Numbered from the stretch's first letter, positions 1 to 40,944 are shown. The stretch: DNA of 44,321 nucleotides from Candidatus Aminicenantales bacterium (GCA_049512315.1 JBEKXF010000027.1:1-44321), one strand, 5' to 3'. The notes: a model not told the origin generated them from the sequence alone. Made by a program: numbers and translations.

Positions 1-1
1 T

Positions 2-130
2 CCGAGCGCTTGGGTTGACGGAGGCCACTTAGATGTCGCCGTCACAACAGTGTCCGGGACGGCTCTTGCCGCGTGTGAGCCAATTCAAGTTAACCAAGTT
101 AAGTTTTTGCCCGAAAAGCCGGCTAATTAG
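2..130 (+). CDS. possible 3' end of a hypothetical CDS entering the window (PSAWVDGGHLDVAV...EKPAN*)
   Basis: Open frame from the window edge to TAG at 128-130; no recognisable motif. Confidence 0.25.
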   Translation, partial: PSAWVDGGHLDVAVTTVSGTALAACEPIQVNQVKFLPEKPAN

Positions 131-153
131 CGGCCAGGGTTGGGACTCTCCCC

Positions 154-182
154 GTGTGCCAGCCGTGTGCCGGTGGCGTGCC
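154..182. repeat. three direct repeats G(T/C)GTGCC at 11-bp period; candidate integrase arm-type sites
   Basis: GTGTGCC at 154 and 165, GCGTGCC at 176; about 110 bp from the tRNA fragment at 294. Confidence 0.65.
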
Positions 183-251
183 AAAATCGACTGAAAGCGC
201 CGTAAAATTACGGTTTCGGACGGAAGACGATGAGAGGGTCAGGCCTCATCG

Positions 252-264
252 CAAGTCGCTGATA
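252..264 (-). promoter_or_regulatory. IHF-consensus site within an att arm
   Basis: Minus strand TATCAGCGACTTG matches WATCARNNNNTTR and lies between the arm repeats and the tRNA fragment. Confidence 0.5.
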
Positions 265-293
265 AATCGGAGAATCAGGGTAGAAAAAGAGAA

Positions 294-340
294 GCGCGCC
301 CGGAGGGATTCGAACCTCCAACCTTTGGATCCGGAGTCCA
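294..340 (-). mobile_element. 3' half of tRNA-Arg(CCG); att-site remnant 1, not an intact tRNA
   Basis: Minus strand TGGA-CTCCGGA-TCCAA-AGGTT-GGAGG-TTCGAAT-CCCTC-CGGGCGC-G has an anticodon loop with CCG, a T-loop and the 3' acceptor strand; no complementary 5' acceptor strand upstream. Confidence 0.8.
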
Positions 341-445
341 CGTCTCTACCCTCCTGGACATATGGGGAAAATCCGATTTCCAGGGGGAAATGCCTTGCTT
401 TCCTTTACGCACCTTTAGTCAGAATTAAGCGCGTTTAAGCAAAAT

Positions 446-464
446 CTGTGACATGGCTGTTACA
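446..464. repeat. direct repeat CTGT(G/T)ACA x2 at 11-bp period; candidate arm-type sites
   Basis: CTGTGACA at 446 and CTGTTACA at 457, on the other side of tRNA fragment 1. Confidence 0.55.
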
Positions 465-555
465 CGGGGAGAGGTCTGCCGGACGCTCATTAACCTCGGA
501 AGCCCCCTCTAAGGACCAGACTAATCTGCCCCCATAATTGACCCAAGATCCGGTT

Positions 556-930
556 CTACGCCTCGCCAAAGCTCTCCAAGGCAGCTTCAACAGTTGCAAA
601 AACGACTTCTTCCTTTCCGAAGTACCAGCGAGGATCTAAGGCTAAGTGGCTGCTCTTTGGTAAGCACGCCAGCTTGAGCTTGCCACCTAGGGACCGGCAT
701 GATATGTAACTAGCTACAACCTCCCCAACTCCAAAACTATCCACGAATTTGACGTTCTGAAAGTTAAAGATAAAGTTCCTCTTCCCCCTATCTAACTCGG
801 CCTTCACGAACTGATAGAGCGTCGGCTCATTTCCGCTATGCCGGCAGATCTTCCCTTCCAAATCCAGTATCGTCACATTCTTGACTTCCCTGGTTTTTGC
901 GACCAATCCACCCGCTAGTATGCTTATCAA
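556..930 (-). CDS. STAS-domain protein (anti-sigma-factor antagonist-like)
   Basis: VTILDLEG...FIFNFQNVKFVDSFGVGEVV...GGKLKL is a typical STAS pattern. Probable TTG start at 930 behind GAGGGG (the ORF track extends to 969). Confidence 0.85.
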   Translation of the reverse strand: MISILAGGLVAKTREVKNVTILDLEGKICRHSGNEPTLYQFVKAELDRGKRNFIFNFQNVKFVDSFGVGEVVASYISCRSLGGKLKLACLPKSSHLALDPRWYFGKEEVVFATVEAALESFGEA

Positions 931-947
931 AGGCGCCCCCCTCGCTG

Positions 948-1772
948 TCACTTCCAGAACCACCTCCATTTTTTCCCGGCTTTCCCTGGCGAGGGAGATC
1001 CCGCTTCGATGGGGATATCTTTGATCTCTACCACTTGAACACCCTCACTGCATGCCGAGCATTTAGAGGTGAATGATACCGAAACTTCATTCTTGGGCAG
1101 GTTAGGGAACACGACTCGGACAAAATCGGAGGGTGCATCGAGGAGTTCCGTGAGCCCGCATTTGTTGCAGGGGTGGATCACCCAACGATCACGTTCTGCC
1201 AGATATTTGTCTGTAACCATAACAGGATGTGCGCCACCTTGGGGCATAAGGAACTTGATAACTAAGCCCTTATGGACGTTAGTTAGTCCGAATGGAGTAT
1301 TGAGGACGATGCCCGTATAGACTCCTTCCAACGAACCGGTCACTCGGACCCACATCCCCTCAGGAGGATGCTTTGCGATGCGGGCGCCACCTTCGTGGAC
1401 AAGAACCTGAATGTCGTCCGGGAACTCCGGATGAAACTTACCCTTGAGCCCCGGGTCATTGCGCCAGGTGCCCCATAGACTCCCAGGTTGCGGCTGCGGA
1501 CCGTAGAATTGCAGCCAGTCGGGCTTGGCAGGCAGAGAAAGGGCGCTGACTTCCTCGTCGGACAAGGGTATACAAGTGATTCCCGTCCAGGGCGGACGCG
1601 CGACAATGCTCACTTTGGGGGCGTCCGATCTCTCCGGTCCGTCAGAGCCAGCCGAGAATCCCGCTTCCGGATCAATGTACGTGAACCAGATATGGTTGGG
1701 AAAGTTGGCAAGGTCGAGACGAACCCATACTCCCGCAGGCCAAGGTTCTTCGGCCCCGTAGATATGCGACAT
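948..1772 (-). CDS. hypothetical protein with a DUF2314-like motif and a C-terminal CxxC...CxxC zinc ribbon
   Basis: 274 aa behind a GAGGGG RBS; EGMWVRV...YTGIVLNTP; CNKC...CSAC; KKWRWFWK tail. Confidence 0.7.
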   Translation of the reverse strand: MSHIYGAEEPWPAGVWVRLDLANFPNHIWFTYIDPEAGFSAGSDGPERSDAPKVSIVARPPWTGITCIPLSDEEVSALSLPAKPDWLQFYGPQPQPGSLWGTWRNDPGLKGKFHPEFPDDIQVLVHEGGARIAKHPPEGMWVRVTGSLEGVYTGIVLNTPFGLTNVHKGLVIKFLMPQGGAHPVMVTDKYLAERDRWVIHPCNKCGLTELLDAPSDFVRVVFPNLPKNEVSVSFTSKCSACSEGVQVVEIKDIPIEAGSPSPGKAGKKWRWFWK

Positions 1773-1911
1773 TTTATCCCCTCCCCGACCTTTCTTTTTA
1801 AATATACTACACGTGAATTGCGATGTTCAAGTTGCAGACTTATCCGATGATCGTGGAAAATCTCGAGTGATGTGTTTGCCTATCTGTTCGATAATAGGTT
1901 AATTAAATGAA

Positions 1912-1950
1912 GTGCCCCCTAGCCTGACTCGAAAAGCCGACACATGGATC
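1912..1950 (-). mobile_element. degenerate tRNA(Arg-like) 3' fragment; att-site remnant 2
   Basis: 1909-1944 matches 3141-3175 at 32/36 positions; minus strand ..GATCCAT-GTGTC-GGCTT-TTCGAGT-CAGGC-TAGGGGGC-A. Confidence 0.65.
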
Positions 1951-2084
1951 GTCTCTCTCCTGAGCACTAAAACGTTGACTGCTCTACAGACATTTCTCAT
2001 ATTCTTAACAAACTCTTGACAACTTTTCCTCCCGACAAACCTAGATTATTAGCAGAGAAATCAATGGAAAGGAGAGCCGAATTG

Positions 2085-2915
2085 ATGAAAGCAAGATTTT
2101 GGGGAAAAAGGGATTCAGCGGTTGGAGGGGCTGTTCTCAACGCCGCGAAACTCATAGTCTTTTTAACTGGCTGCATAGTTTTGTTGCCAGCCTTTGCGTT
2201 GGCTCAAAAAACAATAATCATTGATGAAAGCCTGAGCGCTAATGCTGATAAAATGAACGTGAAAATGGGATGGCAAGTGGGTGAGGTATGGAAGTTCCGT
2301 TTTGGAGATTATGCAGTTGTATCACCCAAATTGACAGTGACAACCGGCACTTCAAAGACTAATATTTGGGGCAGCCGGACTGAAACTAAAAGCAAAAGAA
2401 AATTCTTGTATTTATTGAAGGGGCCTACACCTGATACCGCCCGTGTGAATGCAGCCCAAAATATTGACGTCAAGACGTCGCAGAGTATTGAAATACTATC
2501 CCATATTTCTCTGGGAAGTGACGAGGTGCTAGCAGAGACCGATAATTTTGTCGCCTTCATTAAAATTAATGAAGATGATGCTGATACCTGGACCCTGATC
2601 ATGAATGTCGTGAGACGCACCGGGGGGGAACAGGAAAACCCAAAATCCTTTCTGACTAATGGTGTAAGAAAAATTCTCCTTATTCCAGTGACATCAAACA
2701 AAGATGGCGATGCCCGTGGTACCCCTGCTCTGGGGTACGAATTATCAGAAAACGGGCAGGCATTGGGGGCGGTCCAGTATAATGGTGGTGGATTATTTGC
2801 ATGGAATAAAACTATTATTTATATAGACCGGAACCTGGAACCAAAAATGAAACTCTTATTAGCTGCAGCAATGACTGCTGTTTTGCAGGTAAAGGTAAGA
2901 CCTCCAAAGTTTTAA
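2085..2915 (+). CDS. hypothetical exported protein, AT-rich cargo gene
   Basis: Long ORF; ATG at 2085 behind GGAG (alternative 2064); signal-like KLIVFLTGCIVLLPAFALA-Q; visibly more AT-rich than the genes after 3.8 kb. Confidence 0.75.
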   Translation: MKARFWGKRDSAVGGAVLNAAKLIVFLTGCIVLLPAFALAQKTIIIDESLSANADKMNVKMGWQVGEVWKFRFGDYAVVSPKLTVTTGTSKTNIWGSRTETKSKRKFLYLLKGPTPDTARVNAAQNIDVKTSQSIEILSHISLGSDEVLAETDNFVAFIKINEDDADTWTLIMNVVRRTGGEQENPKSFLTNGVRKILLIPVTSNKDGDARGTPALGYELSENGQALGAVQYNGGGLFAWNKTIIYIDRNLEPKMKLLLAAAMTAVLQVKVRPPKF

Positions 2916-3143
2916 ATGCCTGGGGCTGGCGCAAACTGACGTCCACAGTTTTACACAGCAGGAAGGCCAACCTCTTCTCCTATGCCAACAATGGTTAATT
3001 GCCTCTAAAATAATGGCTGTCGAGATTTGTGACGTGCTGAACGCTAAAAAGCGGAGAAGCAACCTAAAAGGACTTAAAACCAGCGATCACTCGATGATCG
3101 AGTGACGGGTTGATCTTCAAGGCTTATTTGGGAAAAAACGGAA

Positions 3144-3185
3144 GTGCCCCTGGCCTGACTCGAACAGGCGACACACCGCCTTCGG
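3144..3185 (-). mobile_element. tRNA(Arg-like) 3' fragment; att-site remnant 3
   Basis: Minus strand CCGAAG-GCGGT-GTGTC-GCCTG-TTCGAGT-CAGGC-CAGGGGC-AC has a perfect 5-bp T-stem, T-loop and 3' acceptor strand; 5' half absent; isotype uncertain. Confidence 0.75.
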
Positions 3186-3234
3186 CAGTGCTGGCAAGGC
3201 CGGCATGGATTAGGAATCCCACGACCTAGCGTTT

Positions 3235-3247
3235 CAACTAACTGATA
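3235..3247 (-). promoter_or_regulatory. IHF-consensus site within an att arm
   Basis: Minus strand TATCAGTTAGTTG matches WATCARNNNNTTR, between fragment 3 and the repeats at 3279. Confidence 0.5.
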
Positions 3248-3278
3248 ATAAAGAGAATTCCACAGCCCCAAGTCTGGG

Positions 3279-3297
3279 TGTGCACAGATTGTGCTCA
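3279..3297. repeat. direct repeat TGTGC(A/T)CA x2 at 11-bp period; candidate arm-type sites
   Basis: TGTGCACA at 3279 and TGTGCTCA at 3290. Confidence 0.55.
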
Positions 3298-3564
3298 ACT
3301 GCGGCCCCCACCCGCACCAGAAGCGACACAGGGGCTCACGCAGCGCCAACCGCTCGGAAGCAGAAACCCCAAGACATTAGAACAGCAGCGTCAGAAAGAT
3401 GAACGTGAATAGTTCTGTACGCAAGCCCGTTTCCCCCATTTCTTGAGCCGCCGTCATTCGGCACGTAAGTATCGAACGAAGAACTTGCTCATGATGTAAT
3501 TCAGGCTGAAAACCGGGAAAGATTAAATGGCTGAAAATCAGGGAGAAATGTGTCGTAACTGAGA

Positions 3565-3599
3565 GGATTCGAGCCTCCGACCTTTGAATCCGGATTCGA
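3565..3599 (-). mobile_element. degenerate tRNA-Arg(CCG) fragment; att-site remnant 4
   Basis: 30/35 identical to 306-340 (GGATTCGAgCCTCCgACCTTTGaATCCGGAtTCgA). Confidence 0.7.
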
Positions 3600-3629
3600 A
3601 CTTCTAATTTTTCGGGCGGCGTCTTCAAA

Positions 3630-3648
3630 GTCACAATTTGGTCACAAT
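3630..3648. repeat. direct repeat GTCACAAT x2 at 11-bp period; candidate arm-type sites
   Basis: Exact 8-mer at 3630 and 3641, 30 bp from fragment 4. Confidence 0.6.
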
Positions 3649-3747
3649 CCTTCCCTGCCGGGAGCACTTCTCCCCCATTGATTGCTGATTGTGAAAGAGA
3701 TTAAGAGGCCGGGACGGACTTAGGGACTTGGACGGGGAAGTCCGCGG

Positions 3748-3776
3748 CTGACAATCATCCGAAAGGATGATAAGAT
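3748..3776 (+). promoter_or_regulatory. candidate sigma70 promoter of pepP with a palindromic spacer
   Basis: CTGACA-N17-TAAGAT; the spacer is ATCATCC-GAAA-GGATGA(T). Confidence 0.5.
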
Positions 3777-3803
3777 AAGGTTCTCGGCCATAAAGGAATC
3801 GCC

Positions 3804-5189
3804 ATGTTTGATCAAAGCATTTACATTAAAAGACGGGACCGTCTGAAACAGCGCGTCCGGTCGGGCCTCGTCCTCTTCCTGGGAAACGAAGAGAGCCCGA
3901 TGAATTACGCGGATAACGGTTATCATTTCCGTCAGGACAGCTCGTTCCTCTATTTCTTCGGTCTCGACTTCGCCGGGTTGGCCGGTGTCGTCGACCTCGA
4001 CGAGGGAACCGTCGCGATCTACGGCAACGACCTGACGATCGACGATTTCGTCTGGATGGGCCCCCAGCCGACGATCCGGGAGCGGGCGCTCGCCGTCGGG
4101 GTCGAAAAAACGGGGCCCTGTGCCGCGCTCAAAGAGCTCTTGAAGGCCGTAAAGGCCGCGGGCCGGAAGGTCCATTTCCTGCCGCCTTACCGCGCCGAAA
4201 ACGCGATCATGCTCATGAATGGACTTGGGGTTGCGCCCGACAAAGCGGGAGTCGAGGCGTCCGTCGAGCTCATCAAGGCGGTCGTCGCCCAGCGGGCGAT
4301 CAAAGGCCTCGAGGAAGTGAAGGAAATCGAGGCTGCGGTCAACACCTCCGTCGATATGCACATGGCTGCCATGCGCATGGTCCGGCCCGGCGTCGGCGAA
4401 GCCGAAATCGCCGCCGAGGTCCACAGAATCGCACTGGCCGCAGGGGGTGATATCGCCTTCCCGATCATCGCCACGGTCCACGGCGAGACACTCCACAATC
4501 AATACCACGGCAACCGGCTGAAGGACGGGGACATGTTCCTGCTCGATGCCGGGGCCGAGAGCGCTCTCCATTATGCCGGCGATCTCTCCAGCACCATCCC
4601 GGTCTCACCGAAGTTTACGCCACGGCAAAGGGAGATCTATGAGATCGCGCTTGCCGCCCACGAGGCCGCCGCCGGCGCCCTCAAGCCCGGGGTGAAAAAT
4701 CTCGACGTCCATCTCCTGGCCTGCCGGACGATCGCCGCCGGGCTCAAGGATCTCGGCCTTATGAAGGGGGATGTGGACGAGGCCATCCGCCAGGGCGCCC
4801 ATGCCCTTTTCTTTCCGTGCGGCGTCGGCCATATGATGGGCCTCGACGTCCACGACATGGAAGACATCGGCGAGATCTACGTTGGCTATGAAGGCATGTC
4901 CAAGAGCAGCCAGTTCGGCCTGAAATCCCTGCGCTTGGCCCGGGAAATGAGGCCGGGGTTCGTCTTGACGATCGAGCCCGGCATTTACTTCATCCCGGAA
5001 CTAATCAACCAATGGAAGGCCGCGGGCAGATTCACCGATTTCCTGAATTACGACCGGATCGAGGCCTACAAGGATTTCGGGGGTATCCGCAACGAGGAGA
5101 ATTTCCTGATCACAGCCGACGGGAAGCGTCTCCTGGGGAAGCCGAAGCCCAAGACAATCGAAGACGTAGAGTCCATCGCCAGGATTTGA
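3804..5189 (+). CDS. pepP: Xaa-Pro aminopeptidase (peptidase M24B)
   Basis: FRQDSSFLYFFG N-domain; metal-ligand motifs DAG...YAGDLS, GHMMGLDVHD, TIEPGIY, GGIRNEE; AAGGA RBS. Confidence 0.93.
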   Translation: MFDQSIYIKRRDRLKQRVRSGLVLFLGNEESPMNYADNGYHFRQDSSFLYFFGLDFAGLAGVVDLDEGTVAIYGNDLTIDDFVWMGPQPTIRERALAVGVEKTGPCAALKELLKAVKAAGRKVHFLPPYRAENAIMLMNGLGVAPDKAGVEASVELIKAVVAQRAIKGLEEVKEIEAAVNTSVDMHMAAMRMVRPGVGEAEIAAEVHRIALAAGGDIAFPIIATVHGETLHNQYHGNRLKDGDMFLLDAGAESALHYAGDLSSTIPVSPKFTPRQREIYEIALAAHEAAAGALKPGVKNLDVHLLACRTIAAGLKDLGLMKGDVDEAIRQGAHALFFPCGVGHMMGLDVHDMEDIGEIYVGYEGMSKSSQFGLKSLRLAREMRPGFVLTIEPGIYFIPELINQWKAAGRFTDFLNYDRIEAYKDFGGIRNEENFLITADGKRLLGKPKPKTIEDVESIARI

Positions 5190-5511
5190 GGGGCCTTTTG
5201 AAGGATCTCTCGATGGCGGGCGCATCGAAGCTCTTCTTATTCAATCTTGGCCGCTGATCGTGAAACGTTCACGATCTTCCCGTGACCTGCAAATAATTGA
5301 TCATCTTCATTTGATAATTTGCCTTGGCATCGCTCAGCTGATCTTTGGCCTGTCATCGTGACCTGCCCCCCCTTAAACCGGTCCAGGTATAACGCGGGAA
5401 ACCCTAGGAGAGGAACTTTTTCAGTTCTTCTCGGTCTAGAGTCAACAGAACCTTCTTGATTCATTCTACTCGTTCAATGAGGTTTACACAGTTTTCCTTA
5501 TTCTCCGTCCG

Positions 5512-5540
5512 TTGACACGTCCCAAGCTTGAATTTATGAT
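5512..5540 (+). promoter_or_regulatory. sigma70 promoter of the GH29 gene
   Basis: TTGACA-N17-TATGAT; the ORF-track TTG start is actually the -35 box. Confidence 0.7.
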
Positions 5541-5547
5541 GCGCATC

Positions 5548-7110
5548 ATGAGTGAAATGAAAAGACGCAATTGCGCGAATATCGCGAAACTCCTGTCATC
5601 TGTGATCTTGGCATTATTATTTCTGGGAACGTCATCCGGCCAGGAAGCCGGCCCCCGGGAAGATTCGGTATCCCCGGGCCGGAAAAAGATTATCCGGGCA
5701 ATGAAGGAAAAAACATATGAAGCAAACTGGGAATCCCTTGCCCAGTGGGAGATGCCGAAATGGTTTGAGGATGCCGTTTTCGGGACCTACTGGCATTGGG
5801 GGCCGTATTCTGTAGCCGGCTACGGATATAGCTGCTGGTATGGAAGCAGCATGTACGAGCCGAATAATGGACCTGATTATCGAGGGGGAGATTGCTATAA
5901 GCATCATGTGGAGGTTTGGGGCGATCCGTTCACCCAGTTCGGCTATAAGGATTTTATTCCTCTGCTGACGGCGGCGAAATGGAATCCCGCTGAATGGGCT
6001 AAACTCTTCAAGGAGATCGGAGCGGATTTTGCCGGGCCCTGCGCTGAACATCACGATAACTTCTCGATGTGGGATTCCAAAGTCACGATGTGGAATTCGG
6101 TAAATATGGGCCCCCATCGGGACATTGTCGGTGACATCGCCAAGGCCTTGAAAGCGCAGGACGTGAAATTTATCGTAACCTTCCACAATAATGGATGCAA
6201 TAACTGGAACTACTTCAACGGAGGAAGAAAGGGCTGTCCCGAAGGCGTCGATGTCAATAATCCCGATTATTACGGGCTCTACGGCGAGCCGCATGATTCA
6301 CCGGGCGCGCGCCATAGGATGTGTCTCAAGTTTTTCAACAAAGCGATGGAAGTCATCGATAAGTACAATCCCCAAATGATATGGCTGGAAGGCTGCATGG
6401 ACAAGGAAATCATTGCCGATTTTATGCCCAAGATGATGGCCTATTATTTCAACAAGAACGAGAAGTTGGGCGGGGGTGTTGTCGTGACGCATAAGGGCCA
6501 GGAGCTGCCTCTCGCCTGTTCACCGCTGGATTTCGAGACAGGCGGAAAAGAGGAACCCGATATCCGCAAATGGCAGACCGATATGCCATTGCCGGGCTGT
6601 TCTTGGGCCTACGAGAGCACCATAAAAATGACCGCCGAGGATATTGAAAAAGGAGCGAATTCCCTGGTTGCCAGTATCGTGGACAGGACGAGCAAGAACG
6701 GCGTCACGTTGTTGAGCATCGGGCCAAGAGCCGATGGGACAATTCCGGAGTACCAGATCGAAATGCTGAAAAAGCTGGGCACATGGATGAAAGTCAATAA
6801 GGAAGCTCTCTATGGATCCAAGCCGGCTCCTTTTTCCAAGGGTGGCGTAGACACCTGGAAAGCCGGCACGATCAGGTTCACGGAGAAAGACGATTATCTC
6901 TATGCCATCGAATTGAAAATGCCGGCTGCAGGAGAGGTGATCCCGGGGGTCAAGTTATCACCGGGGTCGATAATCAACATGCTCGGTTACGCCAAAAATC
7001 TGCCTTGGCACCAGGAGGGCGGTGATGTTGTGATCGACAAGATACCCGATAAACTCCCCTGTCATTATGCCTGGTCATTTAAAATTAAAAAGGCTGATAT
7101 CGTGAATTGA
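5548..7110 (+). CDS. GH29 alpha-L-fucosidase family protein, exported
   Basis: WESL..PKWFEDAVFGTYWHWGPYSV, AEHHDNFSMWDS, SKNGVTLLSIGPRADGTIP, NKEALYG; signal peptide; start 5548 or 5557. Confidence 0.9.
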   Translation: MSEMKRRNCANIAKLLSSVILALLFLGTSSGQEAGPREDSVSPGRKKIIRAMKEKTYEANWESLAQWEMPKWFEDAVFGTYWHWGPYSVAGYGYSCWYGSSMYEPNNGPDYRGGDCYKHHVEVWGDPFTQFGYKDFIPLLTAAKWNPAEWAKLFKEIGADFAGPCAEHHDNFSMWDSKVTMWNSVNMGPHRDIVGDIAKALKAQDVKFIVTFHNNGCNNWNYFNGGRKGCPEGVDVNNPDYYGLYGEPHDSPGARHRMCLKFFNKAMEVIDKYNPQMIWLEGCMDKEIIADFMPKMMAYYFNKNEKLGGGVVVTHKGQELPLACSPLDFETGGKEEPDIRKWQTDMPLPGCSWAYESTIKMTAEDIEKGANSLVASIVDRTSKNGVTLLSIGPRADGTIPEYQIEMLKKLGTWMKVNKEALYGSKPAPFSKGGVDTWKAGTIRFTEKDDYLYAIELKMPAAGEVIPGVKLSPGSIINMLGYAKNLPWHQEGGDVVIDKIPDKLPCHYAWSFKIKKADIVN

Positions 7111-7148
7111 TTCAAATTGTCCGATAGAGGTGACTGCAAACCGTGGGG

Positions 7149-8693
7149 TCAAATGCCTTTCCCGTGCTTCTTCAGGTAAGAACGCCAGGTGATCGCCCAT
7201 TTCGCCGGGTCGTCGAACCAGCCGTGGTCGATCCGGTGGACGACGCTCCGGTAGGGAGCCCCCTTGACCTTCGCCGGGTCCTCATAAGCCTCCTCGGAGA
7301 TCTTTTTCAGGGCGGCTAGATACTCGTCTATCTCGGCTTTGGAGTAGGACTCGGTCGGCTCGATGGTGAAGGGCTCGGGCACGATGAAGGGATGATGGCT
7401 CGACCAAAGGTGGAAGCCGAAGTCCGCCATCCGGAGCGCGACGTCCTCGGTCGTGACGCCCGTGTCCCTCGTGAGTTTCTCCCAACTGTAGCGCACCTGT
7501 TCGATCCGGTGCCGTCCCTGGGCATAGGGGGCGCTTGCTCCGCGGATCTTCTTGACCTTTTCCAAAATGTAATTGTTGTTGAGCACGGCCACATTCGCCG
7601 CCTCCCGAAGGCCGCGTTCTCCTAAACTCATAATCCAGGCGTAGGCCTTGAGGATCGCGGGAAATACGCCGTAGAAGCTCCGGACTTTGCCGATCGTGTT
7701 CTTCAGGTCATGGCGGAGGAAATATCTTTCGCCGTCGAAATCGACGACCGGGACGGGAAGGTAATCCATGAGCTCCCCGACGACGCCGAGGGCGCCGCAG
7801 GCCGGGCCGCCGCAGCCGTGGGGCGTCCCGAACGTCTTGTGGAGGTTGAAGAAACACATGTCGAAGCCGGCTTCGCGCGCCCGGGTCACGCCCAGGATGC
7901 CGTTGGCGTTGGCCTGGTCATAACCACACAGCCCGCCAGCCCCACGGACGGTCCGGGTGATCTCGTCTATTTTCGGGTTGAAGATGCCCGTGTCCTCGGG
8001 GTTCGTGATGAGAAGCCCGGCCGTCCGCTCCGAGACGGCGAGCTTCAGAGCTTCGAGGTCGGGAAGGCCGTCTTCCGTTTGACAAATCGTGACGACCTTG
8101 TAGCCTTTGACGGCGGCCGCAGCCGCGTCGGAGGGATGGGAGAAGATGGTCGTGATGACCTCGTCGCGTGTCTTCCCCTCGCCCCGTGATTCGTGCCAGG
8201 CCTGGATCATCGAGGCCATGGCGAGGATGGCCGCTGAGCCCGAAGCCGGCTGGAAGGAGAACCGGTCGAGCCCCGAAATCTCCCGCATGAAAAGGTCCGT
8301 CCGGTGGATGATCTCCAGGGCGCCCTGGATGGTGCTCTCGTCCTGGAAGGGGTGGAGCTCCGCCACTTTAGGCGACGCGGCCAGGGCGTCGTTGATCTTC
8401 GGGTTGTACTTGATCGTGCACGTCCCCTGGCCGATGTCCACGTTGAGGTCGGCGCCGAGGGTGTGCTGGGAGAGGCGGAGGTAATGTTTCAGGACCCGCA
8501 TCTGGGAGATCTCGGGAAGCGCGGGCGGGGTCTTGCGGCGAAGAGATTCGGGAAGGGCCGAGATCCCGTCGCCGACTTCATCCGCGATGGCCTTCTCGAC
8601 CGGCGGGACGAGGATCCCTCTCTCTCCCTTCGTGCTAAGCTCGAAGATGACCTCCTCGTCCCATTTTGCCTGATGGAAAGCCCGCGGCTTCAT
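7149..8693 (-). CDS. gcvPB: glycine dehydrogenase (decarboxylating) subunit 2-like, divergent
   Basis: PLP lysine motif FNLHKTF, TNPEDTG, IEPTE; start MKPRAF at 8693 overlaps the gcvPA stop (ATGA). Confidence 0.88.
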   Translation of the reverse strand: MKPRAFHQAKWDEEVIFELSTKGERGILVPPVEKAIADEVGDGISALPESLRRKTPPALPEISQMRVLKHYLRLSQHTLGADLNVDIGQGTCTIKYNPKINDALAASPKVAELHPFQDESTIQGALEIIHRTDLFMREISGLDRFSFQPASGSAAILAMASMIQAWHESRGEGKTRDEVITTIFSHPSDAAAAAVKGYKVVTICQTEDGLPDLEALKLAVSERTAGLLITNPEDTGIFNPKIDEITRTVRGAGGLCGYDQANANGILGVTRAREAGFDMCFFNLHKTFGTPHGCGGPACGALGVVGELMDYLPVPVVDFDGERYFLRHDLKNTIGKVRSFYGVFPAILKAYAWIMSLGERGLREAANVAVLNNNYILEKVKKIRGASAPYAQGRHRIEQVRYSWEKLTRDTGVTTEDVALRMADFGFHLWSSHHPFIVPEPFTIEPTESYSKAEIDEYLAALKKISEEAYEDPAKVKGAPYRSVVHRIDHGWFDDPAKWAITWRSYLKKHGKGI

Positions 8694-10093
8694 CGGACCA
8701 CCCCCTCGAGAGCCGCCGCCAGGGAATCGATGTCGTCTTTCGTGTGGACCTCCGTGACGCAGAAAAGGGCACAGCCCGCCAGGCCAAGGAAATCCCGGCC
8801 CAGGTCTCTCCCCCCGAAAATCCCACGCCCGAGGAGGGCTTGGTTGATGTCGGCCACGCTCTTCCCCGTCCCCGTGAAATCGACGACGAATTCCTTGAAA
8901 TACGGCGACCTGAAGCGGGGGGCTTTCACGCCGGGAAGCTTGGCGATTTTTTTCACGGCATATTGGGACCTCTGAAGGATATGTTGTCCCAGTTCCCGCA
9001 TCCCCTGCGGCCCCATGAGGGCCAGATAGACGCCGGCCGTGATCCCCCAGAGAGCGGCCGCCGTCCCGACGAACTCCTTGCCCTTTTCCCGGACGCTGAA
9101 CGAGGTCCGGTCGTAAGCCACATCGCCAAAGCCCCATTCCCCTTCGACCGCCGTTTTGGCGATCCCGAAGAGCCGCGACGGGTATTCCATGACGAACCTT
9201 TCTTCGTCCCGGGTTGAAATGAAGCCGCCCTGGCCGCCTCCGAAGTTCATGTGGACGCCGAGGGGCTGGATGTCACCGCAGACGATATCGGCACCGTAGT
9301 GGCTCGGCGGGGCGATGACGCCCAGCGATATGGGGTCCACGCCGACGACGCACAGCCCGCCGCGGGCGTGGGCCATCTCGGCGATCCGCTGCCCCTGGGT
9401 ATCGAGGAAGCCCAGGTAGGAGGGATTCTCAAAATAGACCGCGGCCGTCTTTTCCGTGAATTTGGCCGCCAGGTCTTCGAGATCCATGCCGCCCGTCTCA
9501 GGATCATGACGGACCGGGACGAGGCTCATCACGCCGCGGCAATAGTTCTTCATGACCAGCAGACGGTCGGGACCGATCGTGTCCGCGACGAGGGCCTCAT
9601 CCCTTTTCGTGATCCGGCCGGCCATGCGGACCGACGTGCTGGCCGCCTGGCACCAGTCAAAGGTCGGGACGTTGACGACATCCATGTCGAGGAGCTCGGC
9701 CATCAGGCTTTCATACTCGAAGAGGGCCTGGAACCGGCCGTGGTCCTCGTACGGCTCTCCGGCGTAGGCCGTCAGGAATTCCGATCGGCGGTTGATCTCA
9801 TCGCAGACGGCCGGCACGTAGTGTGGCCAGCAGCCGCCGCCGAGGAAGCTCAGCGCCTCGGCGCAGGACCGGTTTCTGCCGAGGATGCCCTCGACATGCC
9901 GTTTCAGCGCCGCTTCCGATGTCAACGGCTCGGGCAGGTTCATCCGGCCGCGGAAGCGCAGCCGCTCGGGGATATCGCCGTAAAGCTCATCAACGTTCCG
10001 GACGCCGATCTCCCTCAGCATCTGTTCCTTCGCCTCGGGGATGGAATTCGGGATGTAGGGATGGACAAATGACTTTTCGTCGCTCATGGGCAC
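8690..10093 (-). CDS. gcvPA: glycine dehydrogenase (decarboxylating) subunit 1-like
   Basis: YIPN..MLREIGV, FLGGGCWPHYVP, RSEFLTAY, QALFEYE, GADIVCGDIQPLG..FGG, VTEVH; start 10093 or 10087. Confidence 0.88.
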   Translation of the reverse strand: MPMSDEKSFVHPYIPNSIPEAKEQMLREIGVRNVDELYGDIPERLRFRGRMNLPEPLTSEAALKRHVEGILGRNRSCAEALSFLGGGCWPHYVPAVCDEINRRSEFLTAYAGEPYEDHGRFQALFEYESLMAELLDMDVVNVPTFDWCQAASTSVRMAGRITKRDEALVADTIGPDRLLVMKNYCRGVMSLVPVRHDPETGGMDLEDLAAKFTEKTAAVYFENPSYLGFLDTQGQRIAEMAHARGGLCVVGVDPISLGVIAPPSHYGADIVCGDIQPLGVHMNFGGGQGGFISTRDEERFVMEYPSRLFGIAKTAVEGEWGFGDVAYDRTSFSVREKGKEFVGTAAALWGITAGVYLALMGPQGMRELGQHILQRSQYAVKKIAKLPGVKAPRFRSPYFKEFVVDFTGTGKSVADINQALLGRGIFGGRDLGRDFLGLAGCALFCVTEVHTKDDIDSLAAALEGVVR

Positions 10094-10186
10094 CTCAAGG
10101 GTCGGACTGCGCGTTCATCAGTCGTTCTCATCTCGGCCGGGCGGCCCGCCGGTCTCGTGCGGGAAAGACGGGCCCTGATCCCGGCG

Positions 10187-10969
10187 CTAGGCGATGCCGC
10201 CGCCATCCACGACGAGGAAGGCGCCGGTCACCCATTTCGAAAGGTCGCTCGCGAAAAAGAGGACGGCGTTAGCCACGTCATCGGGCGTCCCCACCCGAGC
10301 CAGAGGCCGGAGGGCCGCGGCTGCCATGAACGCCTCCTCCTCCTGACCGAGCTGGGCGCATTCGCTCCGGAGCAAAGGCGTGTCGATATCGCCCGGGCAG
10401 ACGCAGTTGACCCGGATGCCGTGGCGGCCGTGGTCGATGGCCATGGCCCGGGTGATGTTGAGGATTCCGCCCTTGGCTGCACAGTAGGCGACTGCGTCAG
10501 GGCCGCCTTTGAGGGCCCAGCCGGAGCCCATGTTGATGATGCTCCCCCCTCCGGCGGCGATCATGTGGGGGATGACGTGACGCGACAGGAGATAGGTCCC
10601 TTTGAGCATGACGTCGAGCGTAAGATCCCACTCCTCTTCCCCGAGCTCGATGGCGTTCTTCCGGACAATGACGCCGGCGTTATTGAAGAGGATATCGATG
10701 CGACCGAACTCGCGGACCGTCTCGCCGACGGCACGACGGCAATCGGCCTCCGAGCGGACGTCGCAGGAGATGAAGAGCGTCCGGCCGCCGCGGGCGGTGA
10801 TTCCGGCCGCGGCCGCGGTTCCTTTCTCCCGGTGGACATCAAGAAGGACGACCCCGGCCCCGAATTCGGCCAGCCGGCGAGCTGTGCCCAGACCGATTCC
10901 CGAAGCGCCACCGGAAATGACGGCCACCCGTCCTTCAAGAGAAACGATCTCTAATGCTTTTGGATTCAT
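10187..10969 (-). CDS. short-chain dehydrogenase/reductase (classical SDR)
   Basis: SGGASGIG, NNAG, YCAAK, IRVNCVCPG; ATG at 10969 behind GAGG. Confidence 0.93.
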   Translation of the reverse strand: MNPKALEIVSLEGRVAVISGGASGIGLGTARRLAEFGAGVVLLDVHREKGTAAAAGITARGGRTLFISCDVRSEADCRRAVGETVREFGRIDILFNNAGVIVRKNAIELGEEEWDLTLDVMLKGTYLLSRHVIPHMIAAGGGSIINMGSGWALKGGPDAVAYCAAKGGILNITRAMAIDHGRHGIRVNCVCPGDIDTPLLRSECAQLGQEEEAFMAAAALRPLARVGTPDDVANAVLFFASDLSKWVTGAFLVVDGGGIA

Positions 10970-11001
10970 GAAGGCCTCGCCCATGTCGCGAAGCGACCCT
11001 C

Positions 11002-11030
11002 GATATACCACAGGGACCGGGGACTGTCAA
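11002..11030 (-). promoter_or_regulatory. sigma70 promoter for SDR-gcvPA-gcvPB
   Basis: Minus strand TTGACA-N17-TATATC with a TG extended -10. Confidence 0.6.
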
Positions 11031-11184
11031 CATAACGGGTCTGATCTGCCTCCTCTTAAATATGGGTGTAAGGAAAAGGGATGAGGTCTAGGAAGATTGG
11101 CAACTCCATGCTGCCGATCCGGTTGAAGGACGGCGGCTAGCTCCAATACGCCGTGGTGGATATCCTCGGCCGCTAAGTTGCCTA

Positions 11185-11943
11185 TTATTCTCTCTGACTG
11201 GCCAGACCGCCGGCGATCTCCCCCCCGTCGATGACGAACGATTGGCCCGTAATGAACGCGGCGTCATCGGAGGCTAAGAAAGCGAAGAGGGCCGCTACTT
11301 CTTCCGGCCGGCCGAGCCGGCCGAGCGGCACCTTGGCCTCGAAGACTCGGCGCTTGTCTGGGGTGTATTCGGCCTCCTGCATGGGCGTCAGGATGAAGCC
11401 CGGGCAGACGCAGTTGACTCGGACGCTGGGTGCGAGCTCGAGGGCCATGGACCGGGTCAGCTCGATGACTCCGGCCTTCGAGGCGTTGTAATCGGCGTAG
11501 TAATGATAGCCCATGATACCGTTGGTCGATCCCATGTTGAGGACGACGCCGCCCGAGTCGGCGGCCATGCGCCGGGCGGCTTCGCGGGCGCAATAAAACA
11601 CTCCGTTGAGGTTCGTGTCGATGACCCGCCGCCATTCCGCCTCCGTGATGTCGAGGAAGCGATGGCGGAGGCTGATGCCCGCGTTGTTGATGAGGACGTC
11701 GAGTCCGCCCCACAGATCATCCAGCCGGGCGAAAGCGCCGGCCACGGACTCGGGCTCCGAGACATCCGCTCGGAGGACCGCTTCCAGGCTGGAGAGCTGC
11801 TTCGTCACACCGTCGAGGGCCGCCTCGTTCCTGTCGAGGACGGCCACCCGAGCTCCCTCGGCGAGAAAGCGGGCCACGATGGCCGCCCCGATGCCCTGGG
11901 CCCCGCCCGTGACGACAGTTCGTTTGCCTTTCAATCCGCGCAT
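11185..11943 (-). CDS. short-chain dehydrogenase/reductase (FabG-like SDR)
   Basis: TGGAQGIG, NNAG, YNASK, VRVNCVCPG; ATG at 11943 behind GGGGAGG. Confidence 0.93.
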   Translation of the reverse strand: MRGLKGKRTVVTGGAQGIGAAIVARFLAEGARVAVLDRNEAALDGVTKQLSSLEAVLRADVSEPESVAGAFARLDDLWGGLDVLINNAGISLRHRFLDITEAEWRRVIDTNLNGVFYCAREAARRMAADSGGVVLNMGSTNGIMGYHYYADYNASKAGVIELTRSMALELAPSVRVNCVCPGFILTPMQEAEYTPDKRRVFEAKVPLGRLGRPEEVAALFAFLASDDAAFITGQSFVIDGGEIAGGLASQRE

Positions 11944-11959
11944 CGCCACCTCCCCTAAT

Positions 11960-11988
11960 ATTATAGCCCACATGATCTTAGCGAACAA
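11960..11988 (-). promoter_or_regulatory. sigma70 promoter for the second SDR
   Basis: Minus strand TTGTTC-N17-TATAAT immediately upstream of the RBS. Confidence 0.55.
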
Positions 11989-12247
11989 AGACCGCCCACT
12001 AAACGGGCCTATTCGGCTTAGAGATGGATGTGCATGCCATGTGGCTCAGTTTTAGTGACTCAGATTAAAAATATCAGGGAAGCTAGGTGTTTGTTCTTGA
12101 CCTCGATCCGCAGCCCGAATTATCCTGTGCGGGACGGAAGTGTTGAGGTGTGGGACAGGAACAAGCTGTAATCTCAGGTCGACATCTGGCGAAGAATCAG
12201 GGGGTAGAAGCCTGTAGCGAGGCCGAATCGGCTGTTGTGAGGTGCCA

Positions 12248-14725
12248 ATGAACAGACGGGATTTGTTTCGCCAAGGGTTTTGGAGCCTGGCTGCTCTTCG
12301 GGGACTTGGCCGCCGGGCATTGTTCGGCGCGGCGGCGTCAGGAGGCGCCGGGGTGCCTGCGGTGCCGCAAGCAGCGGCCGCTCTCCCGCTCAACAAGGCG
12401 CAAGTCTACAGGCTTTTGGGCTTCGTCACGATGACCGGCGAGGACCCGCTCAAGATGTGGGAACGGCTCCGAGACACTCGCGAATGGCTGGTCGGGCCGC
12501 TATCTCCTGACGCCTGGCCAGGGCAAGCCTTCATCGCGGATCATGCCGATATTTTCGCCTTCCGGTTTCTTACTGTTCCCGCGGCGTGGACGAAGCAACG
12601 GAATACAGAGGGCGCGGTGGAGTTCTGCGCGAAGAACTTTCGGGCTTGGTTCGCAGGCTGGCCCAAGTGGTGGAAATTCGTGGGCCCGAAGGCACCCGAC
12701 AATTCATACGCTCGCCTCGTGTGGCAGGTTCCGGATGGCGGACCCGAAGTGACGTACGAATGGGCGCAAACCGCTGTGAACGAAGTGGTCTGCCGGATCA
12801 GGCATTCGCGGCCCTGCGACCTCGTGGTACAAGCCTACACACCATGGGACAGCAACCCCCCTCATTTTTCTGTTCTGTACACAGACGACCCCAGCCGCCG
12901 TTTTCTGCGGGCGCGTTCCTGGGTGCCGGGCACCCGCAACGGGATGCGCTTCGTCACAGCTTTCAGTGCGCCCTTCGATGAGAGCCGGCAGATCACCCGG
13001 GATGAGAACGCCGGACCGGGTATGCCGCGCGACTGGAACGCGCTCTTCAGCAACATCCAGACATTGTATCTTTGTAAGCGGCAAGGGCAAACCTACGACG
13101 AATTGGAGGCGAGCACCGCGGCGTGGCTGGAATCCGGCCGGATCGATGATCTGTTGGAACGCAATCGCGAAAAGTATTTGCGCACGCGTCCGGAGGGCGC
13201 GGGCTGACTGGCCGATGTTCCGGCCGCCATCAACGACCAACTCCAATGGAGCGAGGTCTACACGCCCGAGCGGCGGCGCGCCTACATCACCGTCAGTCGC
13301 GCCTGGGCCGGAGAAAACAACAGCGCGCCGGACTTCCTCTGGGACAGCTTCTTCAGCGCGCTGCTGGTTGCCCAGGAAGACGAGAAAAAGGCCTCCGCGC
13401 TTGTGCGCGATATCACTTCCTGGCAGAACGAACAGGGCATGTTCGCGCAATACGGTCAATGGGTGGCCCGACCGAACGACTGGATCTTCCCGGTCGCATG
13501 GGGCCACACTCAGTACCCCGTCGGAGGCCTTGCCGTCTCCAAGATCTACATGCGCCGGCCCAACAAACCGTTCCTTGCGGAAATCTACCCGCGCCTGCTC
13601 AAGAACCACCGCTGGTGGTTTTCGGACCGCGGCGATGGCCAACCCTGGCGCGACGGCAACCGAAACGGGCTGCTCGAGTTAGGGTCCAACTATCCCGAGG
13701 AGATCCCTTACGAAGATCGCCAACAGACCGCCTATTTCGAGTCGCACGACGACAGCCCGCAATGGTGGCACGTCGCAAAATACAACGAGAAGACCAACAC
13801 GTGCGAGCTCGACACGGTCGAGCGGAACTGCCTCTACACCATGGATTGCTGGATCCTCGCATGGATAGCGCGCGAGTTGGGTCGGACAGCGGAAGCAGCC
13901 GCGCTCGAACAGGAACACCGCGCCATGACGGAGAAGATCAATCGGCTTCTTTGGGACCCTGGGCGCGGTTCGTACGCGAACCGCCGCTGGGCGCCGGAAA
14001 ATGGGAATTGGTTCACGCCGCACATGGCGCCAGACATATTCCTGTCTCTGCTCGGACGTGTGACGCCCGCCGACCGCGCCGAAGCGCTGAAAAATCATTT
14101 CTACGATCCAAACAAGTTCGCCGGCGAATGGATCCTGCCGACGATCAGCCGCGATGACCCATTGTACTCGAAACAGCACTACTGGCGGGGCAAGGTATGG
14201 GCGCCGATCAATTGGCTCGTTTACCAGGGCTTCAAGATTTACGACTGGGACCACGAAGCGAGAATGCTCGCCGAGTCGAGCGCGAAGATGTTCCTGAAGC
14301 CGTGGCGCGATAAGGCTGAGTGCTACGAGAACTTCCTGGCCACCACCGGCGAAGGATCCAGCGACCCGCATTACACCTGGGGCGCCCTGATGGTCCTCAC
14401 GGCGCTAGAGGAGTTCATTGATGCGAATCCCTGGCATGGCTTGCGCTTTGGAAACCTCGAGCCCGTCGAGGAAGGAGCGATCCGCCGGTACTACGTGGCC
14501 GGCTCGCTCTACGACGTCGAACTTTCCCTCAAGCATATCGAGGTGCGGCGCGACAGCCGCTTGCTCTTTTCCGCCAACGCGCCGGTCGAACTGCGCCATG
14601 TCGAGTTTGAGGGCGATACCGTGTGCTTTGCGGTACGATCGGCCCGCGGGGTAACGCTTCGGGTCGGCGAAGGCAAACCGGAAACCTATGCGGCCGGTTT
14701 GCAGCGTGGGCACGGCAGGATATAG
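12248..14725 (+). pseudogene. Tat-exported GH63/MGH1-like (alpha/alpha)6 glycoside hydrolase interrupted by one in-frame TGA at 13205-13207
   Basis: ORFs 12242-13207 and 13403-14725 share a frame. Reading through gives EGAG*LADVPAAINDQLQWSEVY...VSRAW...FLWDSFF, then FESHDDSPQW, YWRGKVWAPINW and YENF. Twin-arginine NRRDLF. Confidence 0.85.
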
Positions 14726-14832
14726 CTGCCCGTTCCGTTGCGGTCATAGGAATTTCCTATCCACGCGTTATTGTGTCGTTGATATCGACGGTGTCTGCTG
14801 AGGTCATGGCAGTTTGCTCTGGAGGAAGCGAA

Positions 14833-15975: not shown

Positions 15976-16100
15976 AGCCCGGAGACATTGGGGTGCGACG
16001 GCACGGGGCGATTCGTAAATCGGGGCGCGCTTTTAAGATGGCACGGCCTTCCTGGATGCACGTCATGAATGAGTTTGCCGTCGAAGCCATCGCCTTTTTG

Positions 16101-16130
16101 TTGACATCGATCTGCACCTCGAATTATCCT
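16101..16130 (+). promoter_or_regulatory. candidate sigma70 promoter for the GH39-like gene
   Basis: TTGACA-N18-TATCCT. Confidence 0.4.
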
Positions 16131-16248
16131 TTTTTCGCGATGGGGAGCCTCGATATCAAGCCCAACGGAAGCGGAAGTCTCACAACCCCCGAAAACGATT
16201 TTGTAGGTCCTGAACCTCAACCGTCCATCCACACCCTGTAAGACGACC

Positions 16249-35007: not shown

Positions 35008-35022
35008 GGATTGGCGGCGTTC

Positions 35023-36039: not shown

Positions 36040-36122
36040 CGCGATTCCTCCCGATCCGCCGCCCACCGCGGATGCCGCCGGATCCGCGCGACGGATACCG
36101 GCCGAAGACTTAAGAATTTTTC

Positions 36123-36131
36123 ATTATAGCA
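36123..36131 (-). promoter_or_regulatory. extended -10 promoter upstream of the ABC operon
   Basis: Minus strand TG-C-TATAAT. Confidence 0.55.
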
Positions 36132-36145
36132 TGATTCAAATCCGC

Positions 36146-39435: not shown

Positions 39436-39499
39436 GTGTTCTCTATCCTCCGAACGAATAAAACCTTGGCTCCCTCTGAAATGCGTCCCGAGCGCCCGT

Positions 39500-40516: not shown

Positions 40517-40944
40517 TCTTGTGCTCCTCGAATTTCCTAATATAATACCCTTCCCGCAGGCTCGATCAAATGAGCGCCTCCGGATTCGGTCGGCAAGCCA
40601 ACGGCGCCCTTCCCGGCCGCAGAGATCTTCACATCAAAGCCGTCACCGCAACGCACCCGGACCGAAAACACGACGAGGAGACGGTCGATGCCGGCCAGGA
40701 GTGAGCGTACGGCCACGGAGAGCCAGCGTCATTCTCGTCGGACGATGCCCACGTCGAAACCGGCTCGGGGCGTGAGGCCGCGGGAAGGGCCGGCCGAAGG
40801 CTCAAGACGTCCTCGTGGGAACGGTCAGCCGGCTCTCACGGGGCGATGGGGTTTCCTTGGGCATGTCTCCATTCCTCTCCCGGAGGGACTGGAGGGGGAA
40901 AGGCCGCGTGGCCCCTCCCTCTTGTCCCCATCATAATGCCGTGT

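Follow-up and report, generated by a model that had tools for sequence, protein, structure and literature searches.

Introduction

In an integron, the IntI integrase, the attI site and a promoter stand at the head of the array, and the attC sites are imperfect palindromes that are recombined as folded single strands. Other systems are anchored at tRNA or tmRNA genes. In streptococci, cis-mobilizable elements (CIMEs) are described as elements without integration and transfer genes that retain the attachment (att) sites attL and attR and undergo accretion with incoming elements (PMC5704250). In the account given for Dehalococcoides, many tandem islands are located within 100 kb downstream of ssrA, each ending in a direct repeat of the 3′ end; an integration module is missing from fifteen of them, which were interpreted as potential CIMEs, and conservation extends around the repeats (PMC3146451). 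The tycheposon islands of Prochlorococcus are reported to be tRNA-anchored, with newer insertions pushing older ones inwards and with partial tRNAs and degenerate elements scattered along them (bioRxiv 10.1101/2020.12.28.424599). The Islander survey of islands in tRNA genes (tDNAs) accepted an island only if it held an integrase and measured 2 kb or more; across 2168 genomes, tandems of three or more turned up only 4 times (PMC4383910). Given these requirements, as they are set out there, rows of small integrase-less modules are filtered out by design and are not rare by measurement. Here we report on such a row, in which four tRNA-Arg fragments alternate with small gene blocks, at positions 1-3740 of a 44,321-nucleotide stretch (the window) from a Candidatus Aminicenantales bacterium (GCA_049512315.1, JBEKXF010000027.1:1-44321). 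The row lies at the start of contig C27 of this genome (G000; 77 contigs, 3.55 Mb).

We consider it likely that this stretch is a tRNA-anchored flexible island that grew by accretion, with integrase-less modules inserted site-specifically one after another. Aminicenantes, which are uncultured, abound in peat and sediment, and our data suggest that much of their accessory gene pool, including kinases, hydrolases, defence-like genes and genes from Bacteroidota and Planctomycetes-type bacteria, resides in tRNA-anchored rows of tiny integrase-less modules. The conserved arm described below provides a sequence handle for mapping such regions across the order, and the defined sites and candidate integrases lend themselves to a recombination assay.

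Like CIMEs, which are described as standing in tandem at a tRNA 3′ end and as movable by the integrase of a neighbour or an incomer (PMC5704250), the modules of the window have no integrase; unlike CIMEs, they occur in much larger numbers and are of much smaller size (0-2 genes), they form rows of mixed tRNA specificity, and no conjugative element is in view. For Dehalococcoides, a tmRNA target, a 20-bp repeat and a serine recombinase are reported (PMC3146451), whereas here 20-60-nt pieces of tRNA-Arg genes occur together with 85-nt inverted arms and candidate tyrosine integrases. Tycheposons share with the row the architecture of a tRNA-anchored flexible island with scattered partial tRNAs, and the likeness extends to island architecture only; they are defined, as reported, by their own deep-branching recombinase and replication genes, and lineage and habitat differ (here, Aminicenantes of peat). 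Integron arrays, too, hold small, mostly promoter-poor gene blocks between recombination sites, with a recombinase that is not in each block; here, however, the separators are tRNA cores with arms of a double-strand type rather than folded attC sites, IntI and attI are lacking, and gene orientation is mixed. Integrase-less modules between att repeats are already known, as far as the accounts of CIMEs (PMC5704250) and ssrA islands (PMC3146451) go. What is new is that the modules are so small and so many, that rows are of mixed specificity, and that a symmetric arm is conserved across an order and several tRNA targets. Literature searches on genomic islands, tRNA integrases, tycheposons, CIMEs and tandem tRNA fragments returned no description of such rows in Aminicenantes. 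A previous interpretation made from the DNA alone (the sequence-only reading) is partly supported, being right in kind and overstated in novelty.

Results and Discussion

Four tRNA-Arg fragments at the start of contig C27

The 49 genomic tRNA genes predicted with ARAGORN were used as BLAST queries against the whole of G000. As shown in Table 1, four fragments were found across 294-3594, all on the minus strand (4/4) and in the order CCG, CCT, CCT, CCG; they are referred to as A1, B1, B2 and A2. Such direct, co-oriented repeats of the 3′ part of tRNA genes are a feature of tandem tRNA islands. The sequence-only reading had described four co-oriented tRNA 3′ fragments in the order A-B-B-A, and BLAST to the genome's own tRNA genes yielded these four. 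The likenesses that it gave within each pair were reproduced (88% identity between A1 and A2 over 306-338 and 3565-3597; 90% between B1 and B2 over 1916-1944 and 3147-3175, and 32/36 over 1909-1944 and 3141-3175). Its description of all fragments as 3′ halves does not hold for A1, which is a near-whole tRNA minus the first 13 bases, and its two sequence types hold as CCG and CCT, but A1 and A2 stem from two different tRNA-Arg(CCG) gene types.

The fragments delimit blocks of 1.6, 1.2 and 0.4 kb (355-1915, 1950-3140 and 3176-3558), with the contents stated in that reading (two genes, one AT-rich gene and an empty block, respectively). A core was found at either end of every block; full arms are present at A1 alone, and a partial arm is present at B2. 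A uniform spread of the 63 tRNA fragments of the genome over 3.55 Mb predicts 0.06 per 3.4 kb, for which the Poisson probability of at least four is 5e-7. ARAGORN called zero tRNA genes over the 44-kb window, and Rfam cmscan of 1-4500, at E values up to 10, returned three chance-level matches, none of them a tRNA. The identity of the fragments is therefore based on BLAST to the genome's own tRNA genes, which also located the parent tRNA-Arg genes and further copies.

Given that the window begins at a contig end, the row may extend further left. Positions 1-249 are 94.8% identical to C2:1-249, and bases 1-47 are tandemly repeated, with 4 other letters between the copies, in contigs of three public runs; the contig thus terminates in a repeat.

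A conserved arm flanks the tRNA cores

A1 has the full build, consisting of an upstream arm, a palindrome-bearing spacer, the tRNA core and an inverted, diverged downstream arm. In the best copies elsewhere, the spacer palindrome reads GGGGAAAA-N5-TTTTCCCC. The four GCNTAAA repeats of the upstream arm are spaced in helix phase, a pattern that would be typical of stacked protein-binding sites. The downstream arm (143-258) was missed by the arm hidden Markov model (HMM); positions 146-168 are an inverted repeat of 451-473 (23 nt, 87%), and 154-258 are 90% identical to C63:2965-3069, located 34 nt behind a tRNA-Gln gene, with more copies on C28, C26 and C2. A 175-nt repeat composed of A1 and 125 nt upstream (306-480) has 6 more copies in G000 at 85-91% identity. 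Copies of this repeat were also found in the relatives G012, G006 and G009, and the arm alone in relatives of several families.

The HMM detected 22 arm copies in G000, 19 of them within 132 nt of a tRNA gene or fragment and the remaining three 1.0, 1.4 and 17 kb from tRNA sequence. The arm is located either in forward orientation immediately upstream of 3′ fragments or, inverted, 24-48 nt downstream of intact tRNA genes (tRNA-His, tRNA-Leu(CAA) and two tRNA-Asp genes in G000; tRNA-Glu and tRNA-Asp genes in relatives). Of 9 arm loci in relatives, 8 have a tRNA gene or fragment no more than about 130 nt away, and in G012 one CCG core is flanked by both arms, inverted. The forward, inverted and double settings would look like attR, attL and attP of one element family. 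The centre of the arm-bearing unit varies with the adjoining tRNA (Arg, His, Asp, Leu, Glu or Gln). Moreover, fragment starts cluster at the anticodon loop for CCG and at the T-stem edge for CCT; the anticodon loop and the T-stem region are known tDNA crossover subsites according to Table 1 of PMC4383910. "Empty" double sites also exist, with cores about 200 nt apart and arm sequence alone between them (C24:8278/8521).

The locus in relatives and a module shared with another genus

Genome G002 (same genus, 92-93% nucleotide identity) is collinear with the window at 3588-11996 only, and collinearity breaks inside A2. To the left of the break, G002 has other small blocks, including a DUF1579-like gene with paralogues in fragment rows of G000; the sequence-only reading had suggested that relatives be compared for gain, loss or reordering of blocks at the fragments, and the collinearity with G002 ends at one of them. 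Four public runs, kept as short contigs, were also searched, and parts that lacked coverage in runs X5 and X6 were not taken as evidence. In X5, a relative of ~93% identity is represented by a 15.8-kb contig whose divergence from the window begins at 3630, and in a 97.7% strain of the public runs A2 is retained, as is the empty block as far as 3248 or beyond. Contigs of two other studies agree completely with the window over 412-3170, and with no more than two differences over 3188-5000.

G203 (identical to G009) belongs to the same family as G000 but to another genus. Positions 1988-2958 and 3051-3217 of the window are 92% and 88% identical to G203, respectively. This shared stretch runs from the outer edge of the B2 unit to a CCT fragment matching B1, and the neighbours differ on both sides; one module is thus common, core to core, to two genera. 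In G203, the module belongs to a row that begins with an intact tRNA-Arg(CCT), behind which 11 co-oriented 3′ fragments are spread over 73 kb, at intervals of 0.9 to 20 kb (several of 8-20 kb), and arms precede 3/11 of the fragments. An intact cognate tRNA heads the homologous CCT row of G203 and is absent in the window. The G203 row resembles the tandems described for Islander (PMC4383910), with an intact tDNA, co-oriented displaced 3′ fragments, and crossovers at the anticodon loop or T-stem region. The backbone upstream of its tRNA-Arg(CCT) is syntenic with contig C24 of G000 at 72-82% identity, and several of its blocks are common to scattered G000 contigs at 83-92%. Gain or loss of a single cassette is seen at an AKR segment: on C28 (10647-12442), the AKR gene with a fragment on each side stands between two peptidase genes, and the same two genes are adjacent in G203. 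The G203 row also contains defence-like genes, namely those for a SIR2_2 domain protein, a staphylococcal-nuclease-like protein beside a MutS domain V protein, and an AAA_13 fragment.

tRNA fragments and recombinases across the genome

Outside tRNA genes, 63 tRNA fragments were found on 27 contigs of G000 (26 Arg-CCG and 11 Arg-CCT; 55/63 of the 3′ type), two of which (C22:1-34 and C53:1-31) are tRNA genes cut by contig ends. Neighbouring fragments within 3 kb of one another are co-oriented in 18 of 21 pairs, and several rows mix tRNA cores, for example CCG with CCT, Lys or Thr. By crude calling of open reading frames (ORFs), the nearest upstream gene is co-oriented with the fragment in 37 cases and opposite in 23, and there is none in 3 (n=63). 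On four fragment-bearing contigs, one of the 66 ORFs scanned encodes an integrase; the rest are ordinary accessory genes, among them Ser/Thr kinases with TPR or PD40 repeats, DUF1579 and SnoaL-like proteins, methyltransferases, dehydrogenases and peptidases. In several blocks flanked by tRNA-Arg fragments, the sole gene encodes a Ser/Thr kinase that combines an N-terminal zinc ribbon and TPR or PD40 repeats (Table 1).

None of the 13 tyrosine and none of the 3 serine recombinase hits of the genome lies on the 44-kb contig C27, the left end of which is open. The statement of the sequence-only reading that no block encodes an integrase thus extends to the whole contig. One family (25-84% identity) accounts for eight of the 13 tyrosine recombinases, and 6/8 of its members have a tRNA gene or fragment no more than about 500 nt away; they include candidate integrases behind a CCT fragment with an arm and beside CCG fragments, and others adjoin tRNA-Ser, tRNA-SeC and a His fragment. 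A separate repeated family comprises three short (213-250 aa) tyrosine recombinases with a mutual identity of 87-90%, located away from tRNA sequence. A large serine recombinase (open frame of 522 aa; C2:42160-42603) has an arm-like stretch and a tRNA-Arg(CCG) fragment (C2:43669-43718) in its neighbourhood, about 1 kb away.

Origin of the row

To judge from their sequence context, the fragments are att scars and not chance matches. The view of the sequence-only reading that they are att remnants is supported, because the arms are conserved, the sister genome G002 breaks at a fragment (A2), and a block is shared core to core with G203. In the accretion that we favour, each module would once have borne an attP consisting of an arm, a tRNA 3′ core and an inverted arm. 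A tRNA-targeting tyrosine integrase of the family encoded elsewhere in G000 would have recombined this attP with a chromosomal core, duplicating the core, and later modules would have entered at any surviving core. The AT-rich module would have entered a CCT core already inside a CCG-type row, which would account for the order CCG-CCT-CCT-CCG. Being integrase-less, the modules could move only if an integrase acted on them in trans or if a neighbour carried them along. We infer the role of the integrase as the maker of the joints, the order of insertion, and any present-day mobility; mobilisation in trans appears plausible. Given that B1 and A2 are decayed, much of the row is probably fossil. 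The sequence-only reading had offered either cassettes mobilised in trans or eroded tandem islands. The two alternatives are not mutually exclusive; exchange at the level of the module is seen for 1/3 blocks, and 2/4 cores (B1 and A2) are decayed.

Several observations weigh against accretion as outlined above. The row has no intact head tRNA in the window. A1 and A2 derive from different gene types and are only 88% alike, so they are not two products of one insertion. No single public contig spans 3171-3187 inside the repeated B2 unit, and the join of the two halves of the row thus rests on the original assembly. The public contigs also yielded no trustworthy excision, circle or empty-site junction; a search for circular junctions had been suggested in the sequence-only reading. 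The joints 339->3559, 340->3143, 2110->3148 and 3208->3141 were rejected as excision products, given that their short sides (21-42 nt) lie in repeated tRNA sequence. At the right-hand limit, accretion does not account for a CCG-type row beside pepP, since no tRNA lies within about 8 kb of the orthologues of this gene in G008 and G010. G203 has 3 tyrosine recombinases, none of them in its row, and mobility families were found in 0/81 row ORFs scanned (4 ORFs that cross locus borders were left out); no enzyme is therefore at hand there. One 803-nt stretch further upstream of the G203 tRNA-Arg(CCT) is 89.9% identical to G000, so that the backbone is an imperfect baseline for calling the shared blocks more alike. 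Finally, the AKR-less junction of G203 holds no fragment, which misfits a simple insertion into an existing core and means that a deletion must be assumed.

It is unlikely that the row is a working analogue of an integron, in which one-gene circles with an arm-core-arm site would be routinely inserted and excised in trans and the blocks of the window would be currently mobile cassettes. Many blocks do hold 0-2 genes, but several G203 intervals (8-20 kb) are beyond single cassettes. Conservation of the arms spans the order and at least six tRNA specificities, yet they stand before just 3/11 of the G203 fragments, and B1 and A2 are decayed. The 73-kb row of G203, with its 11 sites, is integrase-free; no row, however, is headed by a fixed integrase, and the orientation of genes to fragments is mixed (37 co-oriented, 23 opposite and 3 none of 63). 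A 1.2-kb module with both cores is common to two genera, and empty sites with two cores about 200 nt apart exist, such as C24:8278/8521, but no circle or empty-site junction was present in the public contigs. A true integron is not supported, since IntI, attI and attC are lacking and the cassette ORFs are not uniformly oriented (0/13 tyrosine recombinases on C27, a contig with an open left end). An attC-like folded site at the A1 unit was rejected (single-strand DNA fold, z -2.2; no Rfam match). The phrase "integron-like in behaviour", which the sequence-only reading had used, is apt only in a loose sense, for an integrase is not adjacent, attC-type sites are absent and gene orientation is mixed. 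We are equally doubtful of a broader proposal, namely an order-wide, integron-like exchange of cassettes on tRNA genes. In this proposal, a symmetric site composed of a ~85-nt arm with four phased 10-nt repeats, a tRNA 3′ core and an inverted arm would have been re-targeted to at least six tRNAs, and recombinase-less modules of 1-2 genes would be inserted, excised and passed between species by integrases acting in trans. A genome would thereby acquire >60 sites, and a single row as many as 11 of them within 73 kb.

Two further explanations dispense with an integrase or with att sites altogether. It is improbable that the fragments are passive scars, i.e., old att remnants that act as dispersed repeats, among which RecA-type recombination and natural transformation exchange, delete and invert blocks. 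The arms and the 76-175-nt units are 85-100% identical among many loci, enough for homologous exchange, and rows of mixed tRNA cores, the fragment-free AKR junction of G203 and the lack of an island integrase in G203 would all fit; on the other hand, the co-orientation of 18/21 pairs and the polarity of the G203 row relative to its head tRNA are as site-specific insertion predicts, family integrases lie directly beside cores in G000, and fragments start at the anticodon loop or T-stem edge, which are crossover subsites as given in PMC4383910. Still more improbable, indeed barely credible, is that the units are a tRNA-derived miniature transposon with inverted-arm ends, or an RNA signal (terminator or processing site) behind genes. 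Against the inverted arms around the core and the recurrence of a ~290-340-nt unit stands the fact that the centre of the unit follows the adjoining tRNA and that single arms occur behind intact tRNA genes, which argues for att halves and not for a transposon. Some fragments are located 25-70 nt behind a stop codon, as an RNA signal would be, but no Rfam family matched at E values up to 10, the single-strand fold of 140-490 is modest (z -2.2; 4/100 shuffles fold as well), and orientation to genes is mixed. Serial insertion at tRNA-Arg-derived cores, by integrases of one lineage-wide, tRNA-targeting family, is the simplest account of the row.

Cargo genes, flanks and right-hand backbone

Table 1. 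Features of the row and of related loci. Positions without a contig or locus name refer to the window.
Feature	Position	Strand	Description
Start of next block to left	1-142	.	Repeated at start of C2; contig breaks here
Downstream arm of A1 (R2 type)	143-258	plus	Diverged, inverted; inverted-repeat and BLAST evidence
A1	294-354	minus	tRNA-Arg(CCG) positions 14-74 of 74 (C4 gene); 91.8% over 61 nt, E 5e-17; core of attP-like site
Spacer of A1	355-396	minus	CATATG and short palindrome; flank alignments
Block 1	355-1915		STAS gene and 274-aa gene
Upstream arm of A1	397-482	minus	Two TGTCACA-type repeats, four phased ~10-nt GCNTAAA repeats; nhmmer E 9e-25
STAS-domain protein gene	556-969	minus	137 aa; Pfam PF01740, E 2e-8
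274-aa protein gene	948-1772	minus	No Pfam family
Flank directly downstream of B1	1875-1915	minus	Conserved; similar behind CCT fragments on C24, C28, C50 and a G203 fragment
B1	1916-1949	minus	tRNA-Arg(CCT) positions 40-73 of 76; 91.2% over 34 nt, E 1e-5; decayed
276-aa protein gene	2085-2915	plus	Exported or membrane protein, AT-rich; no known family; upstream TTG at 2016 would give 299 aa
Flank downstream of B2	3014-3140	minus	Resembles DNA behind intact tRNA-Arg(CCT)
B2 unit	3141-3217	minus	Core preceded by anticodon-arm remnant and 28-30-nt insert
B2 core	3144-3175	minus	tRNA-Arg(CCT) positions 45-76 of 76; 100% over 32 nt, E 1e-11
Empty block	3218-3558	.	Without credible gene; ORFs of 91 and 96 aa without family
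A2	3559-3594	minus	tRNA-Arg(CCG) positions 34-69 of 77 (C11 gene); 94.4% over 36 nt, E 3e-9; decayed
Upstream flank of A2	3595-3739	minus	Two TGTGAC repeats; 92% to G002
pepP (Xaa-Pro aminopeptidase)	3804-5189	plus	Pfam M24 and AMP_N; 94% aa identity to G002; first backbone gene, right limit of array
Insert-bearing CCT units	3176-3217; C28:1262-1303, 10721-10762, 12361-12400, 32988-33031; C34:11254-11295		Flank alignment
Candidate integrase	C34:11600-12760		Behind CCT fragment with arm
Candidate integrases	C24:35120-36223; partial gene on C66		Beside CCG fragments
Short tyrosine recombinases	C2:15798-16547; C5:146814-147452; C50:11675-12313		Separate repeated family
Kinase single-gene blocks	C34:246-10886; C26:23876-27013, 34388-36835, 39179-41710; C55:8519-10747		Between tRNA-Arg fragments
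Defence-like genes of G203 row	L090:18361-19551; L091:654-2769; L089:13577-13996		

The cargo of the row can be regarded as foreign, given that the GC content of the 1950-3140 block is 0.40-0.46 (compared with 0.62-0.65 in the right-hand backbone and 0.608 in the genome) and that the 274-aa gene is found in 1/201 genomes of the order, namely G000 itself. The 274-aa protein has 69 homologues; the small number for which a taxon is named come from Planctomycetota or Verrucomicrobia. An assignment to the DUF2314/Imm33 type was rejected, the structural likeness being below threshold (TM score 0.27-0.31). The AT-rich 276-aa gene is antisense to the fragments. Its family is mostly from Bacteroidota (30-56% identity), and the 36 loci among species representatives include one other Aminicenantes genome (G203), with 35/36 in other phyla or in unclassified bacteria; among metagenome contigs, the 276-aa protein matched the source contig alone. 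The STAS gene has paralogues on C11, C33 and C2. In runs X4 and X5, a ~91% copy of this gene (659-963) is joined to the arm with 191 nt less spacer, and these contigs do not otherwise resemble the window; the gene thus travels with the arm but without the 274-aa gene.

Flank sequences are also repeated around the CCT units. Positions 3014-3175 are 78.7% identical to C24:45295-45457, the region of an intact tRNA-Arg(CCT), and units of the B2 type (76-82 nt) were found on C28 (4 copies), on C34 and in G203. In 6/11 CCT-type units, a 28-30-nt insert that may form a small hairpin separates the anticodon-arm remnant from the T-arm. Within the empty block and its left edge, 3208-3304 match, at 73% identity, sequence that flanks a tRNA-Thr fragment on C55. 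The upstream flank of A2 is 69-71% identical to flanks of CCG fragments at C24:17575-17755 and C66:5237-5379. A2 was considered as a decayed head tRNA and rejected; G002 retains 14 nt identical to the anticodon arm (E 0.004), the likeness to a D-arm by eye is weak, and this was judged insufficient.

To the right of the row, the possibility that pepP and the genes beyond it form an island ending at A2 was rejected, given that C27 holds no further fragment or tRNA. Among these genes, that for alpha-L-fucosidase (5250-7200) has a GC content of 0.46-0.55, compared with 0.62-0.65 beside it, and is 89% identical at the DNA level to G203:C4:473262-474893; for the rest of 3600-20000, the comparison with G203 gave two short stretches of 71-73% (40/91 candidates scored). 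The fucosidase gene seems to have been transferred recently and on its own, with no tRNA scar beside it.

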